Positions 3,570 to 56,922 of a stretch of 64,000 nt of DNA are shown piece by piece. Below the pieces are notes generated by a model. It saw nothing but the letters and a program-made list of their open reading frames with translations, made no database searches and had not been told where the DNA came from. Position numbers and translations under genes: made by a program. The stretch comes from Escherichia phage BP32: sequence record OR906198.1. The stretch is one strand, 5' to 3'. Position 1 is the first letter of the stretch. Each line of letters opens with the position of its first letter.

Positions 3570-3599
3570 GTTTACAAGACTGTTCCTCTGTGGTACTAT
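3570..3599 (+). promoter_or_regulatory. T4-type early promoter (cassette copy 1)
   Basis: -35 GTTTAC, -10 TACTAT; 57-58 bp cassette nearly identical to 56752-56808. Confidence 0.65.
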
Positions 3600-3627
3600 A
3601 CAACTATCAACTACGGAGGAACAGAAA

Positions 3628-4155
3628 ATGAACGCTAAAGATATTTTCAACTTGGTAAATTACAACGATGGTAAATTTAAATCTGAAGCACAAAGCAAGT
3701 TCTTTAACGACATCTCAATCGGAGGTGAAATCACTGTTGATGGAGGACAAATTTACAAATCCCGTTGGAATTGGATCGTTATTATTGATGAGATCGGTAT
3801 TGTAGAAATTTACAAGAATACGAATAAAAATAGTACATTACACTGGTCTCGTGATACTAACGAACAGTACAAAAAGGATAAAGCATCTAAATTATCTCGT
3901 GTAACTCAAGAAGATATTGAGTTCATCAAGAAAGATATTTTAATGTATGATAACTTAATTGCTGAAGAGCAAGCTGTTATTGATAAATTTGACGAGATTA
4001 AAGCTTCTCGTGAAATTCCTGATTTTATGAAAGAATCAGTAAATGAACGATACACTCTCATTTCAGAGCGTATTGAAACTTACAAAAAGCAAAGAGCTGA
4101 ACGCCAAAATACTCTTCGGAAGTTTGAAGAACGGTTAAAGACGGTACTCGCATAA
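3628..4155 (+). CDS. hypothetical protein (175 aa)
   Basis: ATG after ACGGAGGAACAGAAA leader; track ORF 3568 start is a TTG extension through the promoter. Confidence 0.65.
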   Translation: MNAKDIFNLVNYNDGKFKSEAQSKFFNDISIGGEITVDGGQIYKSRWNWIVIIDEIGIVEIYKNTNKNSTLHWSRDTNEQYKKDKASKLSRVTQEDIEFIKKDILMYDNLIAEEQAVIDKFDEIKASREIPDFMKESVNERYTLISERIETYKKQRAERQNTLRKFEERLKTVLA

Positions 4156-6550: not shown

Positions 6551-6579
6551 TTTACTTTACCACAGGGATGTGGTATAAT
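6550..6579 (+). promoter_or_regulatory. T4-type early promoter
   Basis: -35 GTTTAC, spacer TTTACCACAGGGATGTGG, -10 TATAAT. Confidence 0.65.
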
Positions 6580-28908: not shown

Positions 28909-28942
28909 ATAACTATCAACTGATACGGATTTGGAGAATGAA

Positions 28943-29323
28943 ATGAAAATCGCTATTTTGGTTATTGCATTGGGTCTTACTGGTTGTGTAGCTCAAGGAC
29001 CAGTAGTAAATCAGTCTGATGTAGGAAAAATTGTAAACTGTTCAAGCAAATTTTATAATCCTAATGTTAAGTGTTATAAAGAAGCTCCAAAACAGACAGT
29101 AGAACAAATGCAGGCGAATTTTGACGAAGCTATTCGTCCAGATGAATCTGCCCAAGCATATCGTAATTCAGATGTAATTACACGCGAAGAAAAAATTGAA
29201 AGCTACTGCGCTGAACTTTGGGCTAATTGGGCTAATAATTACCAATGGCGTACTGGTAAAAATGCTCCGATGGAGTATGTAGTGAATTCTTATAATTCAT
29301 GTGTAAAAAATTTGACTAAGTGA
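28943..29323 (+). CDS. lipoprotein (imm.1-position), 126 aa
   Basis: Signal peptide with lipobox LTGC; ATG at 28943 after GGAGAATGAA; own early promoter. Confidence 0.65.
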   Translation: MKIAILVIALGLTGCVAQGPVVNQSDVGKIVNCSSKFYNPNVKCYKEAPKQTVEQMQANFDEAIRPDESAQAYRNSDVITREEKIESYCAELWANWANNYQWRTGKNAPMEYVVNSYNSCVKNLTK

Positions 29324-34342: not shown

Positions 34343-34371
34343 TTTACAAGCTGACAAGACTATGGTATAGT
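34342..34371 (+). promoter_or_regulatory. T4-type early promoter
   Basis: -35 GTTTAC overlapping the gene 41 stop, -10 TATAGT flanked by inverted repeat CAAGACT / AGTCTTG. Confidence 0.6.
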
Positions 34372-34401
34372 AGTCTTGTTGGTTAAATTGGGGAAATTAT
34401 T

Positions 34402-34839: not shown

Positions 34840-34869
34840 GTTTACAAGCTGATAGAGTTGTGTTATAGT
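34840..34869 (+). promoter_or_regulatory. T4-type early promoter
   Basis: -35 GTTTAC, -10 TATAGT flanked by inverted repeat GCTGATAG / CTATCAGC. Confidence 0.6.
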
Positions 34870-34900
34870 AATTCTATCAGCTAATCGCGGAGAAAAGAAA

Positions 34901-35685: not shown

Positions 35686-36714
35686 ATGTCATCAATACCT
35701 TGGATTGATAATGAGTTTGCATATCGTGCATTAGCTCATTTACCTAAATTCACACAAGTAAATAATAGTTCAACTTTTAAATTACGGTTTAGATGCCCTG
35801 TTTGTGGAGATTCAAAAACCGACCAAAATAAAGCCCGTGGATGGTATTACGGTGATAATAATGAAGGAAATATTCATTGTTATAACTGCAACTATCATGC
35901 ACCAATCGGAATATATTTAAAGGAGTTTGAACCCGATTTATATCGTGAGTATATCTTTGAAATAAGAAAAGAAAAAGGTAAAAGTCGTCCAGTAGAAAAA
36001 CCTAAAGAACTTCCTAAACAACCTGAGAAGAAAATAATTAAATCTCTTCCGTCATGCATTAGATTAGATAAACTGGCGGAAGACCATCCAATTATAAAAT
36101 ACGTAAAAGCTCGCTGTATTCCAAAGGATAAATGGAAATATCTTTGGTTTACAACCGAATGGCCTAAATTAGTTAATAGCATAGCACCAGGAACATACAA
36201 AAAGGAAATACCTGAGTCTCGTCTTGTTATTCCAATTTATAATGCTAATGGAAAAGCCGAGTCTTTTCAAGGACGTGCATTAAAGAAAGATGCTCCTCAA
36301 AAATATATCACCATCAAAGCTTATCCTGAGGCAACAAAAATCTATGGAGTTGAACGAGTTAAAGATGGTGATGTATATGTTCTAGAAGGACCTATAGATT
36401 CACTTTTTATTGAAAATGGTATAGCTATTACAGGTGGTCAATTAGACCTAGAAATTGTTCCATTTAAAGATAGACGTGTATGGGTTTTAGATAATGAACC
36501 TCGTCACCCTGATACTATTAAACGAATGACTAAATTAGTTGATGCAGGAGAAAGGGTTATGTTTTGGGATAAATCTCCCTGGAAATCAAAAGATGTTAAT
36601 GATATGATTAGAAAGGAAGGTGCAACCCCTGAACAAATTATGGAATATATGAAAAATAATATTGCCCAAGGGTTGATGGCTAAAATGCGGCTATCTAAAT
36701 ATGCTAAGATTTAA
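35686..36714 (+). CDS. 61: DNA primase gp61
   Basis: 342 aa; N-terminal zinc ribbon CPVCGDS ... CYNC and TOPRIM-like core; length equals T4 gp61. Confidence 0.9.
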   Translation: MSSIPWIDNEFAYRALAHLPKFTQVNNSSTFKLRFRCPVCGDSKTDQNKARGWYYGDNNEGNIHCYNCNYHAPIGIYLKEFEPDLYREYIFEIRKEKGKSRPVEKPKELPKQPEKKIIKSLPSCIRLDKLAEDHPIIKYVKARCIPKDKWKYLWFTTEWPKLVNSIAPGTYKKEIPESRLVIPIYNANGKAESFQGRALKKDAPQKYITIKAYPEATKIYGVERVKDGDVYVLEGPIDSLFIENGIAITGGQLDLEIVPFKDRRVWVLDNEPRHPDTIKRMTKLVDAGERVMFWDKSPWKSKDVNDMIRKEGATPEQIMEYMKNNIAQGLMAKMRLSKYAKI

Positions 36715-36911
36715 ATTAACCCAACTAAAGCAAATGCTAAATCTACGAATGTATCAAGAGTAATTACTGGAATACTAACGCCATGAGCAATAGCAACTGG
36801 CGATAAAACAAAATTCCAAAGTAAAATTCCTATCATAGCAGAAATAGTAAAAGCTATACGTTTTTTATTACCTTTGATGGCATTAACAAGTGCCATTAAT
36901 TTTTGTACCAT
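36711..36911 (-). CDS. small membrane protein (66 aa), convergent with gene 61
   Basis: Minus-strand track ORF with strong SD (AAAGGAGG, 7-nt spacer) and two hydrophobic segments; no counterpart in my recall of this T4 locus. Confidence 0.5.
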   Translation of the reverse strand: MVQKLMALVNAIKGNKKRIAFTISAMIGILLWNFVLSPVAIAHGVSIPVITLDTFVDLAFALVGLI

Positions 36912-36960: not shown

Positions 36961-36990
36961 GTTTACTTTCTCAGCTTGTTGTGGTATTAT
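36961..36990 (+). promoter_or_regulatory. T4-type early promoter of the nuclease-like gene
   Basis: -35 GTTTAC, -10 TATTAT; inverted repeat CTCAGC (spacer) / GCTGAG (next to SD). Confidence 0.6.
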
Positions 36991-37015
36991 AAAATAAACT
37001 GCTGAGGATAATATA

Positions 37016-38355
<1,340 letters not shown>

Positions 38356-41393: not shown

Positions 41394-41460
41394 TTCAAAA
41401 AGTTGTTTACTTTCCTTTCTAACGATGATATGATAGCTTCTGAAGTATATGGAGGCTATC

Positions 41461-42084
41461 ATGATTATTAATCTTGCAGATGTTGAACAGTTATCTATAA
41501 AAGCTGAAAGCGTTGATTTTCAATATGATATGTATAAAAAGGTCTGTGAAAAATTTACTGACTTTGAACAGTCAGTTCTTTGGCAATGTATGGAAGCCAA
41601 AAAGAATGAAGCTCTTCACCGGCAATTGAATAAAATCGTTAAAAAGCATTTAACTAAATCACCTTATCAGCTATATCGTGGTATATCAAAATCGACAAAA
41701 GAGCTCATTAAAGATTTACAAGTCGGAGAAGTGTTTTCAACGAACAGAGTAGATTCATTTACTACTAGTTTGCACACAGCATGTGGTTTTTCTTATGTTG
41801 AGTATTTCACTGAAATAATATTTCGCTTAAAAACTGATAAAGCTTTTAATTATTCTGACCATATCAGCGATATTATACTTTCTTCTCCTAATACTGAGTT
41901 TAAGTATACATATGAAGATACTGATGGATTAGATTCAGAACGTACTGATAACTTAATGATGATTGTGCGTGAACAAGAATGGATGATTCCAATTGGAAAG
42001 TATAAAATAACTTCTATTTCAAAAGAAAAATTACACGATTCATTTGGAACATTTAAAGTGTATGATATTGAGGTAGTTGAATGA
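41461..42084 (+). CDS. modB: ADP-ribosyltransferase ModB
   Basis: 207 aa from MIINLADVEQ; paralogue of the downstream ModA; RBS GGAGG. Confidence 0.8.
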   Translation: MIINLADVEQLSIKAESVDFQYDMYKKVCEKFTDFEQSVLWQCMEAKKNEALHRQLNKIVKKHLTKSPYQLYRGISKSTKELIKDLQVGEVFSTNRVDSFTTSLHTACGFSYVEYFTEIIFRLKTDKAFNYSDHISDIILSSPNTEFKYTYEDTDGLDSERTDNLMMIVREQEWMIPIGKYKITSISKEKLHDSFGTFKVYDIEVVE

Positions 42085-45676: not shown

Positions 45677-46359
45677 TGTTTGATTTTATTATAGATTTTG
45701 AAACAATGGGAAGTGGTGAAAAGGCAGCTGTTATTGATTTGGCTGTTATTGCCTTTGACCCTAATCCAGAAGTAGTTGAAACATTCGATGAATTAGTTTC
45801 GCGCGGCATTAAAATCAAATTTGATTTAAAAAGTCAAAAAGGACATCGTCTTTTTACTAAAAGCACTATCGAATGGTGGAAAAATCAGTCTCCTGAAGCT
45901 CGAAAAAATATTGCACCGTCAGATGAAGATGTAAGCACTATCGATGGTATTGTAAAATTTAATGATTACATCAATGCACATAACATCGATCCTTGGAAAT
46001 CTCAAGGCTGGTGCCGTGGAATGTCGTTTGATTTTCCAATTTTAGTCGATCTCATTCGCGATATTCAACGTCTTAATGGCGTTTCTGAGAATGAACTTGA
46101 CACATTTAAGTTAGAACCGTGTAAATTCTGGAATCAGCGTGATATTCGTACCAGAATTGAAGCACTTCTCCTTGTTCGTGATATGACCACGTGTCCTCTT
46201 CCAAAAGGAACTTTAGATGGATTCGTTGCACATGATTCTATTCATGACTGTGCGAAAGACATCCTGATGATGAAGTATGCTTTGCGATATGCTATGGGTC
46301 TTGAAGATGCTCCGTCAGAGGAAGAGTGCGATCCTCTATCTCTTCCAACAAAACGATAA
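45676..46359 (+). CDS. dexA: exonuclease A (DEDD 3'-5' exonuclease)
   Basis: 227 aa; N-terminal acidic motif DFETMG typical of DnaQ-like exonucleases; length equals T4 DexA. Confidence 0.85.
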   Translation: MFDFIIDFETMGSGEKAAVIDLAVIAFDPNPEVVETFDELVSRGIKIKFDLKSQKGHRLFTKSTIEWWKNQSPEARKNIAPSDEDVSTIDGIVKFNDYINAHNIDPWKSQGWCRGMSFDFPILVDLIRDIQRLNGVSENELDTFKLEPCKFWNQRDIRTRIEALLLVRDMTTCPLPKGTLDGFVAHDSIHDCAKDILMMKYALRYAMGLEDAPSEEECDPLSLPTKR

Positions 46360-46365
46360 AAAGTT

Positions 46366-46395
46366 GTTTACTTCCTCGGTTAGTTGTGGTATTAT
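46366..46395 (+). promoter_or_regulatory. T4-type early promoter
   Basis: -35 GTTTAC, -10 TATTAT with upstream TGTGG. Confidence 0.6.
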
Positions 46396-46422
46396 AACAC
46401 CATAGCTACTGAGGATAATAAA

Positions 46423-46923
46423 ATGAAAATTTATCGTGTTGAATCATCTTTTAGTATTCTTAATTGTGAAGATGCTATAACAATACGTCGAAATCTTTGT
46501 GTTCAAATAACGCCATACAGGAGTATAATAGATTCATGGAGCGAAGAGTGGTTATTACACGTAGGTTATGACAGACCTAATTTTATGCATCATAGCGATG
46601 ATAATAAAAGAATTCCTTTACCACACGAAGATAAACTATTAGTTAAAAACGCTAATATAGTAATTAATACTAAGTTCAAGAAAGATTATGTTGGAGTAGA
46701 ATATCATATTCCAGGATGGTTTATAGCTCTTTATCATTTTGCTTTCGCTAGTGAATATGATATGATGAGATGGTTCACACGAGAAGAGCGGGAAGAATTA
46801 TCTTCTAAAGGATTTTATCTCGCTGTATACGAAGTTTCTGAAGATGAAGTTATCATTGGCGGGCACCAAGTAATGTTCCGCAAATCGCATGCTGAACTCA
46901 TAGATTTTATTGAAATGAGATAA
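46423..46923 (+). CDS. hypothetical protein (166 aa), T4 motB position
   Basis: ATG at 46423 after GAGGATAATAAA; T4 MotB is about 162 aa; identity by position only. Confidence 0.5.
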   Translation: MKIYRVESSFSILNCEDAITIRRNLCVQITPYRSIIDSWSEEWLLHVGYDRPNFMHHSDDNKRIPLPHEDKLLVKNANIVINTKFKKDYVGVEYHIPGWFIALYHFAFASEYDMMRWFTREEREELSSKGFYLAVYEVSEDEVIIGGHQVMFRKSHAELIDFIEMR

Positions 46924-47470: not shown

Positions 47471-47500
47471 GTTTACAAACTCTTGGGACCAGAGTATAAT
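47471..47500 (+). promoter_or_regulatory. T4-type early promoter
   Basis: -35 GTTTAC, -10 TATAAT flanked by GGACC / GGTCC inverted repeat. Confidence 0.6.
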
Positions 47501-47544
47501 GGTCCTGTGGAGTATAAAATCTTTTTAACAAGTGAGAGATAACT

Positions 47545-51753: not shown

Positions 51754-51782
51754 TTTACTTTACCACAAGGATGTGGTATAAT
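51753..51782 (+). promoter_or_regulatory. T4-type early promoter
   Basis: -35 GTTTAC overlapping the gene 39 stop, spacer TTTACCACAAGGATGTGG, -10 TATAAT. Confidence 0.65.
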
Positions 51783-56245: not shown

Positions 56246-56275
56246 GTTTACATACCACAAGGACCGTGGTACTAT
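56246..56275 (+). promoter_or_regulatory. T4-type early promoter
   Basis: -35 GTTTAC, spacer with CCACAAGGACCGTGG, -10 TACTAT. Confidence 0.65.
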
Positions 56276-56751: not shown

Positions 56752-56781
56752 GTTTACAAGACTGTTCCTCTGTGGTATTAT
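56752..56781 (+). promoter_or_regulatory. T4-type early promoter (cassette copy 2)
   Basis: -35 GTTTAC, -10 TATTAT; cassette nearly identical to 3570-3627. Confidence 0.6.
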
Positions 56782-56808
56782 TACCCTATCAACTACGGAG
56801 GAACAGAA

Positions 56809-56922
56809 ATGAAAAAGATTGTTAAAGCTATATGGAATGTAGTTATAATACTAGTAGTTTTGAGTATATTCCCAATCGTTTTAATGATTGATGTATTAAA
56901 CGCTTACTTTGGATTTATATGA
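56809..56922 (+). CDS. hydrophobic micropeptide (37 aa)
   Basis: ATG after ACGGAGGAACAGAA leader; MKKIVKAIWNVVIILVVLSIFPIVLMIDVL. Confidence 0.45.
   Translation: MKKIVKAIWNVVIILVVLSIFPIVLMIDVLNAYFGFI

Follow-up and report, generated by a model that had tools for sequence, protein, structure and literature searches.

Several immediate-early genes of Escherichia phage BP32 probably carry promoter-embedded hairpins that sequester the Shine-Dalgarno (SD) sequence, such that RNA reading through from upstream is modelled to mask the SD whereas RNA initiated at the gene's own promoter remains open. We analysed these elements in a 64,000-nucleotide (nt) stretch of sequence record OR906198.1, here called the window, which belongs to a Tequatrovirus (T4-like phage) with 96-98% identity to, for example, Escherichia phages LYE-01 and vB_EcoM-G28. 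This reading is well supported by folding and comparison for three of the four sites considered and for regB and alc of phage T4, and is plausible but unproven for the fourth, at 36961 (sites are named by the first position of their promoter). We infer the transcription starts, the read-through and the effects on translation and on RegB cleavage in this phage.

The + strand of the window is the early-transcription strand and carries 19 good T4-type early promoters (GTTTAC, 18 nt, TAnnnT, in most instances together with TGn and with A/T-rich DNA upstream). An SD and an ATG follow each of them at a distance of 25-45 nt. The genes behind the four promoters of interest, named by comparison with T4 (NC_000866), are nrdC.8, ndd.4, motB.2 and an open reading frame (ORF) without a T4 counterpart:

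3570-3599, + strand, nrdC.8 early promoter
3628-4155, + strand, nrdC.8 ortholog ORF
56752-56781, + strand, ndd.4 early promoter, in a near-identical copy of the 3570 cassette
56809-56922, + strand, ndd.4 ortholog ORF
46366-46395, + strand, motB.2 early promoter, directly past the dexA stop codon (46357-46359)
46423-46923, + strand, motB.2 ortholog ORF
36961-36990, + strand, early promoter (-35 GTTTAC 36961-36966; TGn-extended -10 TATTAT 36985-36990), also annotated as a promoter in the relative Lutter
37016-37576, + strand, 186-aa ORF behind the 36961 promoter, between gene 61 and dam

A preliminary description had proposed that an inverted repeat spans each of these promoters, with its 5' arm in the -35/-10 spacer and its 3' arm overlapping the SD. 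All of its coordinates were confirmed: each 5' arm lies between the GTTTAC -35 box and the TAnnnT -10 box, and each 3' arm lies on the SD, 8-12 nt ahead of the ATG. The arm pairs as originally described are:

36970-36975 / 37001-37006, + strand, CTCAGC / GCTGAG before the 186-aa ORF
3580-3588 / 3616-3624, + strand, CTGTTCCTC / GAGGAACAG before nrdC.8
56762-56770 / 56798-56806, + strand, the same letters before ndd.4
46374-46379 / 46409-46414, + strand, CCTCGG / CTGAGG before motB.2

The arms are longer than had been thought, as the helices exceed these sizes once G-U pairs are allowed:

36968-36975, + strand, 5' arm UUCUCAGC at 36961, in the -35/-10 spacer and missing from own-promoter transcripts
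37001-37008, + strand, 3' arm GCUGAGGA at 36961, coinciding with the SD (GAGGA, with a RegB-type GGAU motif); ATG at 37016
3580-3594, + strand, nrdC.8 5' arm CUGUUCCUCUGUGGU of a 15-bp helix
3610-3624, + strand, nrdC.8 3' arm ACUACGGAGGAACAG, over the GGAGG SD; ATG at 3628
56762-56776, + strand, ndd.4 5' arm of a 15-bp helix
56792-56806, + strand, ndd.4 3' arm, over the GGAGG SD; ATG at 56809
46373-46380 and 46382-46390, + strand, two-part motB.2 5' side, UCCUCGGU and inner AGUUGUGGU
46399-46407 and 46408-46415, + strand, motB.2 3' side, inner ACCAUAGCU and ACUGAGGA, the latter coinciding with the SD (GGAU motif); ATG at 46423

At all four sites the -10 box falls within the loop and the SD within the 3' arm. 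The hairpins have energies of -23.2 kcal/mol at 3570 (15 pairs), -22.6 to -23.2 kcal/mol at 56752 (15 pairs), -23.7 kcal/mol at 46366 (8 + 9 pairs) and -12.1 kcal/mol at 36961 (8 bp, with a 25-nt loop). Because the cassettes at 3570 and 56752 are near-identical copies, and the 36961 cassette and the motB.2 cassette at 46366 are paralogs with 80% identity, the window contains two independent helix families rather than four.

Read-through segments were folded from the -35 box to 17-20 nt beyond the ATG and compared with 200 shuffles. The z scores were -5.5 (3570), -4.5 (56752) and -4.6 (46366), with no shuffled sequence folding as well as the native one at any of these three sites. When the spacer alone was shuffled, the energy of the duplex between the spacer and the translation initiation region (TIR) gave p <= 0.0005 at 3570 and 56752 and p = 0.033 at 46366, which amounts to two of the 19 early promoters of the window at the former level and one at the latter. 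Own-promoter RNAs, taken to start about 7 nt past the -10 box, are predicted to be nearly unstructured (0 to -2.3 kcal/mol), and with starts placed from the promoter consensus no transcript from a gene's own promoter could begin early enough to include the 5' arm. The predicted mean probability that the SD is unpaired falls from 0.77 in own-promoter RNA to 0.00 in read-through RNA at 3570, from 0.76 to 0.00 at 56752 and from 0.85 to 0.15-0.29 at 36961, and these values are unchanged when 0 or 300 nt of upstream RNA are added. The SD core is also paired in the predicted read-through RNA at 46366 and 36961. Folding thus agrees with the original proposal of an SD that is open in own-promoter RNA and buried in read-through RNA at 3570, 56752 and 46366, and largely so at 36961.

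None of these hairpins is thermodynamically negligible, even at 36961. Folded in the same manner, the validated regulatory hairpins of T4 have minimum free energies in context of -19.4 (e), -20.7 (I-TevI), -19.8 (49) and -11.7 kcal/mol (soc), and the hairpins described here (-12 to -24 kcal/mol) match or exceed them in stability. The whole window yielded no matches to Rfam 15 at the gathering score.

T4 itself has this design at regB, alc, nrdC.8, ndd.4, motB.2 and alt.-3. Among 27 T4 early promoters scored alike, four (regB, ndd.4, alc and nrdC.8) show spacer-TIR pairing at p < 0.01, where 0.27 would be expected, and the regB complementarity extends to 14-15 bp; motB.2 and 30.8 reach p < 0.05, and alt.-3 (p = 0.066) and e.8 (p = 0.077) are borderline. 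As a class, therefore, the pattern is well beyond chance. Orthologous promoters of Mosigvirus, Moonvirus and Gelderlandvirus, and of phages that we infer to be JS98-like, keep the pairing between spacer and SD with different arm letters. Registers for the divergent promoters were taken from RNAduplex run on each sequence, a MAFFT alignment of the regB promoters having misplaced the 3' arms. The arms (5' / 3') and duplex energies are:

regB, T4: UUUUCCUCUUGACU / AGUUAAGAGGAGAA, -21.4 kcal/mol
regB, Av-05 and phiC120 (Mosigvirus): UUCUCCUCUAGUUG / CAACUAGAGGAGAA, -23.2 kcal/mol
regB, Merlin (Moonvirus): UCUCCUGUAAG / CUUACAGGAGA, -20.9 kcal/mol
alc, T4: CCUCGUGUUGUGU / ACAUAACAUGAGG, -21.3 kcal/mol
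alc, STML-198 (Gelderlandvirus) and a relative: AUCYCCGUUURGUU / AACCAAACGGAGAU, -16.7 / -20.0 kcal/mol
motB.2, T4-like: UCCUCGGU / ACUGAGGA, -17.4 kcal/mol
motB.2, JS98-like: UUCUCCUCAUG / CAUGAGGAGAA, -18.1 kcal/mol
nrdC.8, T4-like: CUGUUCCUCUGUGG / CUACGGAGGAACAG, -20.0 to -23.8 kcal/mol
nrdC.8, loci L011 / L012: AUCUCCAGUAG / CUACUGGAGGU, -17.3 / -11.1 kcal/mol

The variable bases flank the SD core, and changes occur on both sides of the helix. Of the eight divergent cassettes tested, six reach significance by themselves (p = 0.003-0.025); the exceptions are L012 (p = 0.12) and the L007 type of nrdC.8, in which the hairpin involves only the -10 region. When the spacers and TIRs of 11 cassette types were paired all against all, a spacer found its best partner in its own TIR in 10 of the 11 cases (diagonal mean -18.9 versus off-diagonal -10.0 +/- 2.7 kcal/mol; permutation p <= 1e-5), a result that speaks to specificity rather than prevalence because the cassettes were picked for pairing. 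Judged from sequence comparison, pairing between spacer and SD is conserved, with compensating changes, across five phage genera.

These changes also bear on whether the selected object is RNA or DNA. An arm flanks each side of the -10 box in every case, as would be expected if the repeat were a cruciform or a palindromic protein-binding site that modulates the promoter. However, internal G-U pairs outnumber A-C mismatches 17:3, and sense duplex energies always exceed antisense energies at window and T4 promoters, which argues that selection acts on the sense RNA and not on DNA or an antisense transcript. Single-base helix differences among close relatives are likewise wobble-compatible (for example T4 versus window ndd.4, alc at locus L046 and dmd at locus L071). 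Moreover, the arms covary without a conserved motif and the length of the loop ranges from 10 to 25 nt, neither of which suits a protein-binding site. A DNA-level element is therefore scarcely credible, and we rejected it on the basis of the G-U bias and the covariation of the arms.

If the hairpins operate as modelled, the device would exploit the -35/-10 spacer, the only part of a T4-type sigma-70 early promoter that is free in sequence, to encode an anti-SD arm. RNA arriving from upstream early promoters or from MotA-dependent middle promoters would hold both arms and fold co-transcriptionally with the -10 box in the loop, burying the SD and also the GGAG or GGAU motif cut by RegB. RNA from the gene's own promoter would begin past the 5' arm and present an open, efficient ribosome-binding site. 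Translation of the gene would then be confined to the first minutes of infection, as long as its own early promoter is active. Longer early and middle transcripts would skip the gene and would in turn be shielded from RegB cleavage at the masked SD. More speculatively, an untranslated gene body might invite Rho termination, which would tie this model to the attenuator function proposed for the promoter early stem-loops (PeSLs) of other T4-type phages.

Several features of T4 transcription are relevant to this scheme. Early promoters of T4 shut off within about 2-5 min of infection by a mechanism that is unknown, and RegB cleaves early mRNAs (PMC3014915); RegB itself is made early, according to a time-resolved omics study of T4. 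Middle RNA derives partly from extended early transcripts and partly from MotA-dependent promoters (PMC2988021). Mapped T4 middle promoters lie upstream of each gene in question: Pvs.7 (regB), Pdex.2 and Pdda.1 (motB.2), PmobD (nrdC.8), PrIIB1 and PrIIB2 (ndd.4) and PnrdB (alc) (PMC2988021). Further middle promoters lie directly after nrdC.8 (PnrdC.7) and inside ndd.4 (Pndd.3) (PMC2988021, Table 1), as if these two genes were skipped in the middle mode. In the window, according to a scan for intrinsic terminators, neither 3570 nor 46366 is separated from its upstream promoters by such an element. A distance of 13-17 nt separates the upstream stop codons from the 5' arms, and we estimate from it that terminating ribosomes should not melt the helix.

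RegB requires single-stranded GGAG or GGAU and is readily inhibited by secondary structure (PMC3014915, PMC1702504). Because the buried motif is such a target, the helix should protect long transcripts from RegB at the internal SD, a consequence that the preliminary description had not raised. Conceivably this protection is the principal function, so that long polycistronic RNAs are spared cleavage and degradation, distal genes are kept, and translational silence is a by-product. Every helix whose 3' arm lies on the SD covers a GGAG or GGAU, middle transcripts are mostly RegB-resistant (PMC3014915), and in vivo RegB cuts the GGAU of T4 motB.2 and, only moderately, the GGAG of nrdC.8 (PMC1702504). 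However, the same helix necessarily blocks 30S binding, such that sequence alone cannot separate the two effects, and many early SDs with perfect RegB sites, for example that of motA, have no protecting arm. RegB protection as the main purpose is thus decidedly unlikely.

SD masking is one class of a broader habit of embedding stem-loops in promoters. Spacer-dependent hairpins with z < -2 occur at 8 of 19 early promoters in the window and 11 of 27 in T4, and they fall into two sharp classes, with the 3' arm either on the SD (SD-type) or flush against the -10 box (-10-only), and none between. In the -10-only class the 3' arm begins right after the -10 hexamer and the loop is 6-8 nt, compared with 10-25 nt for the SD-type. 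Examples are found at T4 dmd, motB, ipI, e.7 and mobD.2 and at window promoters 34342, 34840 and 47471. The window representatives are strongly non-random (z of -3 to -4.4) and have helices of 13-15 bp:

34349-34363 / 34370-34384, + strand, -10-only hairpin at the dmd promoter
34847-34860 / 34869-34882, + strand, -10-only hairpin
47479-47491 / 47500-47513, + strand, -10-only hairpin at the motB promoter

Several observations count against assigning the SD-type hairpins a switch function, and some of them favour a rival explanation, namely that these are generic PeSL-type hairpins around the -10 box that serve in attenuation or insulation, in stabilization of upstream mRNA 3' ends or as recombination cassettes, with the SD overlap being incidental, since the -10 box and the ATG are only some 25 nt apart. 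Roughly one in two spacer-anchored hairpins never reaches the SD. In one nrdC.8 lineage (L007/L010) the SD helix has been replaced by a -10-only helix, which indicates that a more general hairpin function exists, and the motB hairpin of a JS98-like phage has other arms but is again -10-only. Cassettes appear to have been duplicated and exchanged within genomes (3570 and 56752, 36961 and 46366, and nrdC.8 of locus L009, which has an ndd.4-type loop), and the PeSLs of phages RB49 and phi1 have been reported as terminators and recombination sites (PMC2839356). Independently of this rival, RNA structures that stop RegB in vitro do not always prevent cleavage in vivo, where the enzyme may act on nascent RNA (Durand et al., PMC1702504), and ribosomes could likewise load before folding is complete. 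In addition, shuffled spacers gave SD unpaired probabilities of 0.21-0.30, although this control is conservative and says nothing about 36961 and 46366, where a pyrimidine-rich spacer continues to pair with a purine-rich SD even after shuffling. The remaining adverse points concern the 36961 site and are given with it below.

A generic PeSL-type role for the SD-type hairpins, with an incidental SD overlap, is nevertheless rather unlikely. These hairpins have no U-tract behind them and their stems are not rich in G4/C4, so they lack the marks of intrinsic terminators. Loops of 10-25 nt, compared with 6-8 nt, would be costly unless the SD were the target. The positions of the 3' arms are bimodal. 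For a given gene the hairpin class is mostly constant, and regB, alc and motB.2 are SD-type in every sampled lineage that has an early promoter there. In three other genera, the 11 early promoters in the vicinity of motA include none that is SD-type at p < 0.01 and several with -10-only or intra-spacer hairpins, so SD masking appears to be specific to certain genes and does not simply accompany every promoter hairpin. Intrinsic termination was also considered as a function in its own right and rejected: the hairpins lack a U-tract and are followed by A-rich sequence and the ATG, and the terminator scan finds none at these sites.

The 36961 promoter was the headline example of the preliminary description. 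Its arms are real, but the pairing is the weakest of the four and is not significant when taken alone. The read-through fold has z = -1.73, matched by 13 of 200 shuffles, and shuffling of the spacer gives p = 0.085 for duplex energy and p = 0.31 for run length. In seven orthologous promoters (T2, PM107, Ptacy1496, Lutter and three metagenomic or IMG/VR contigs, a search for 37016 orthologs in IMG/VR and in metagenomes having yielded only 3 and 2 loci) the arms are invariant and the three variable positions lie elsewhere, and covariation is therefore uninformative there. A compensatory change is seen only against the paralogous motB.2 cassette, and the covariation score between the two cassettes is reached by 56 of 500 shuffles. 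Furthermore, an 11-pair terminator-like hairpin followed by TTTTTGT (36874-36899, + strand), which falls inside a short ORF on the late strand (36711-36911), 60 nt ahead of the promoter, may limit read-through from gene 61.

Complementarity at 36961 might thus be fortuitous, a pyrimidine-rich spacer (TTTCTCAGC) facing a purine-rich SD. Chance is excluded for the class as a whole. At 36961, five of the eight helix pairs are identical to those of the motB.2 paralog, and the three differences, two of them one-sided (U-G to C-G and A-U to G-U) and one compensatory (C-G to U-A), all keep pairing; in addition, the site's own TIR is the best partner of its spacer among the 11 cassettes. We consider a purely accidental match at this site highly improbable, and put the likelihood that its helix is functional at roughly even, with that for the class as a whole being much higher.

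The principle that an upstream transcript hides a translation start that a nearer promoter then exposes is established for T4 e, soc, 49, I-TevI, I-TevII, I-TevIII and segB and for Aeh1 mobE, where the relieving promoter is late or middle (PMC3014915, PMC2988022). The early hairpins resemble this class in three respects: transcripts from upstream promoters bury the SD and/or AUG in a local hairpin (predicted here), the promoter lies in or at the 5' arm such that its own transcripts lack that arm (given the starts adopted above), and hairpin stability is comparable. However, the established examples employ a late gp55 promoter (TATAAATA) or a middle promoter, whereas the hairpins described here employ a sigma-70 early promoter (GTTTAC-N18-TAnnnT) with the 5' arm in the -35/-10 spacer. 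Genes regulated in the known manner "are all late genes" (Edgell et al., PMC2988022), whereas the genes gated here (regB, alc, motB.2, nrdC.8 and ndd.4) are immediate-early, with early-only rather than late-only translation predicted. The early hairpins therefore work like the e/I-TevI class without being members of it, because promoter class and timing are opposite. They would constitute an early-promoter version of a trick known only for T4 late genes, and a temporal mirror of late-gene gating.

The PeSLs of RB49 and phi1 are likewise similar in having a strong early promoter of the sigma-70-like kind preceded by AT-rich DNA, a stem-loop in the spacer or over the -10 box and then an SD and ATG. 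PeSLs also show cassette-like duplication and exchange, to which the paralogous copies in the window may correspond. Stems of the GGGG...CCCC type are typical of PeSLs, which were read as terminators or attenuators and as recombination sites, and SD pairing was not proposed (Arbiol et al. 2010, PMC2839356). Unlike PeSLs, the present hairpins have neither G4/C4 stems nor a U-tract, their 3' arm is the SD, and their arms covary with the bases that flank it. A third parallel is offered by the RegB-resistant structured GGAG sites of T4 mRNAs, as a GGAG or GGAU within a helix is expected to resist RegB (PMC1702504, PMC3014915); those structures (terminators, introns) are constitutive, whereas the structure here depends on which promoter made the RNA. 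Hairpins linking an early-promoter spacer to the SD are not described in the reviews of T4 post-transcriptional control or prereplicative transcription, in the five-genome comparison or in the full-text literature searched, although older literature may hold a mention.

We tentatively propose, as a possibility falling somewhat short of an even chance, that T4-type phages of at least five genera use selected early-promoter spacers as anti-SD arms, so that a dedicated set of immediate-early genes, including those for the RNase RegB and for Alc, which kills host transcription, is translated only from their own promoters. This would be an unrecognised general layer of the early-to-middle transition, perhaps combined with shielding from RegB and insulation through Rho. 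Shut-off of many early T4 proteins within minutes has been only partly explained so far, and such a layer would account for the absence of protein from long early and middle transcripts that still cross these genes once their own promoters have fallen silent. Among the genes covered would be regB and alc, prolonged synthesis of whose products could be harmful. The promoter spacer can be altered while the coding sequence and the -35 and -10 boxes stay intact. Annotation and engineering would then have to treat spacers in early promoters of the T4 type as other than neutral, with expression depending on the promoter from which an RNA originates.

Near-identical promoter and leader cassettes precede unrelated genes in the window at two pairs of locations (3570-3630 and 56752-56811; 2161-2197 and 28909-28945). 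The window nrdC.8 and ndd.4 cassettes are closer to one another than either is to its T4 ortholog and, as noted above, the nrdC.8 cassette of locus L009 carries an ndd.4-type loop. These similarities suggest gene conversion or recombination between cassettes, as has been proposed for PeSLs.

Three other early promoters in the window have an inverted repeat confined to the spacer, with the 3' arm coinciding with the TGn/extended -10 region, like the intra-spacer stems of STML-198 and Merlin promoters (L078:6977 and L079:1959):

6558-6575, + strand, ACCACA(N4)TGTGGT (RNA ACCACA/UGUGGU), promoter 6550
51761-51778, + strand, the same repeat, promoter 51753
56255-56272, + strand, TACCAC(N6)GTGGTA (RNA UACCAC/GUGGUA), promoter 56246

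A different arrangement is seen in the modB leader (41429-41463), where the GGAGG SD lies in a 13-bp hairpin (-15.4 kcal/mol) that is wholly past the -10 box and is therefore present on own-promoter transcripts as well. Structured modB RNA is still cut by RegB in vivo (Durand et al., PMC1702504).

The 186-aa ORF at 37016-37576 is present in T2 and many Tequatroviruses and overlaps the start of dam by one base at 37576. It has weak, sub-threshold Pfam matches to the DpnII (GATC) and BanI restriction endonucleases (E = 0.002-0.005) and carries a D72...E85-x-K87 motif typical of PD-(D/E)xK nucleases; a sequence search of the PDB gave no match. It lies directly upstream of dam, which encodes the GATC methylase, and possibly represents a leftover or variant form of a restriction-modification pair.

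Finally, the annotated start of T4 ndd.4 (NC_000866 166749-166764, locus L026; window 56794-56811) is an ATG that sits within the SD region (CTATGGAGG). Judging from the leader, the ATG five codons further down, which has the GGAGG SD at proper spacing, is the likelier start.

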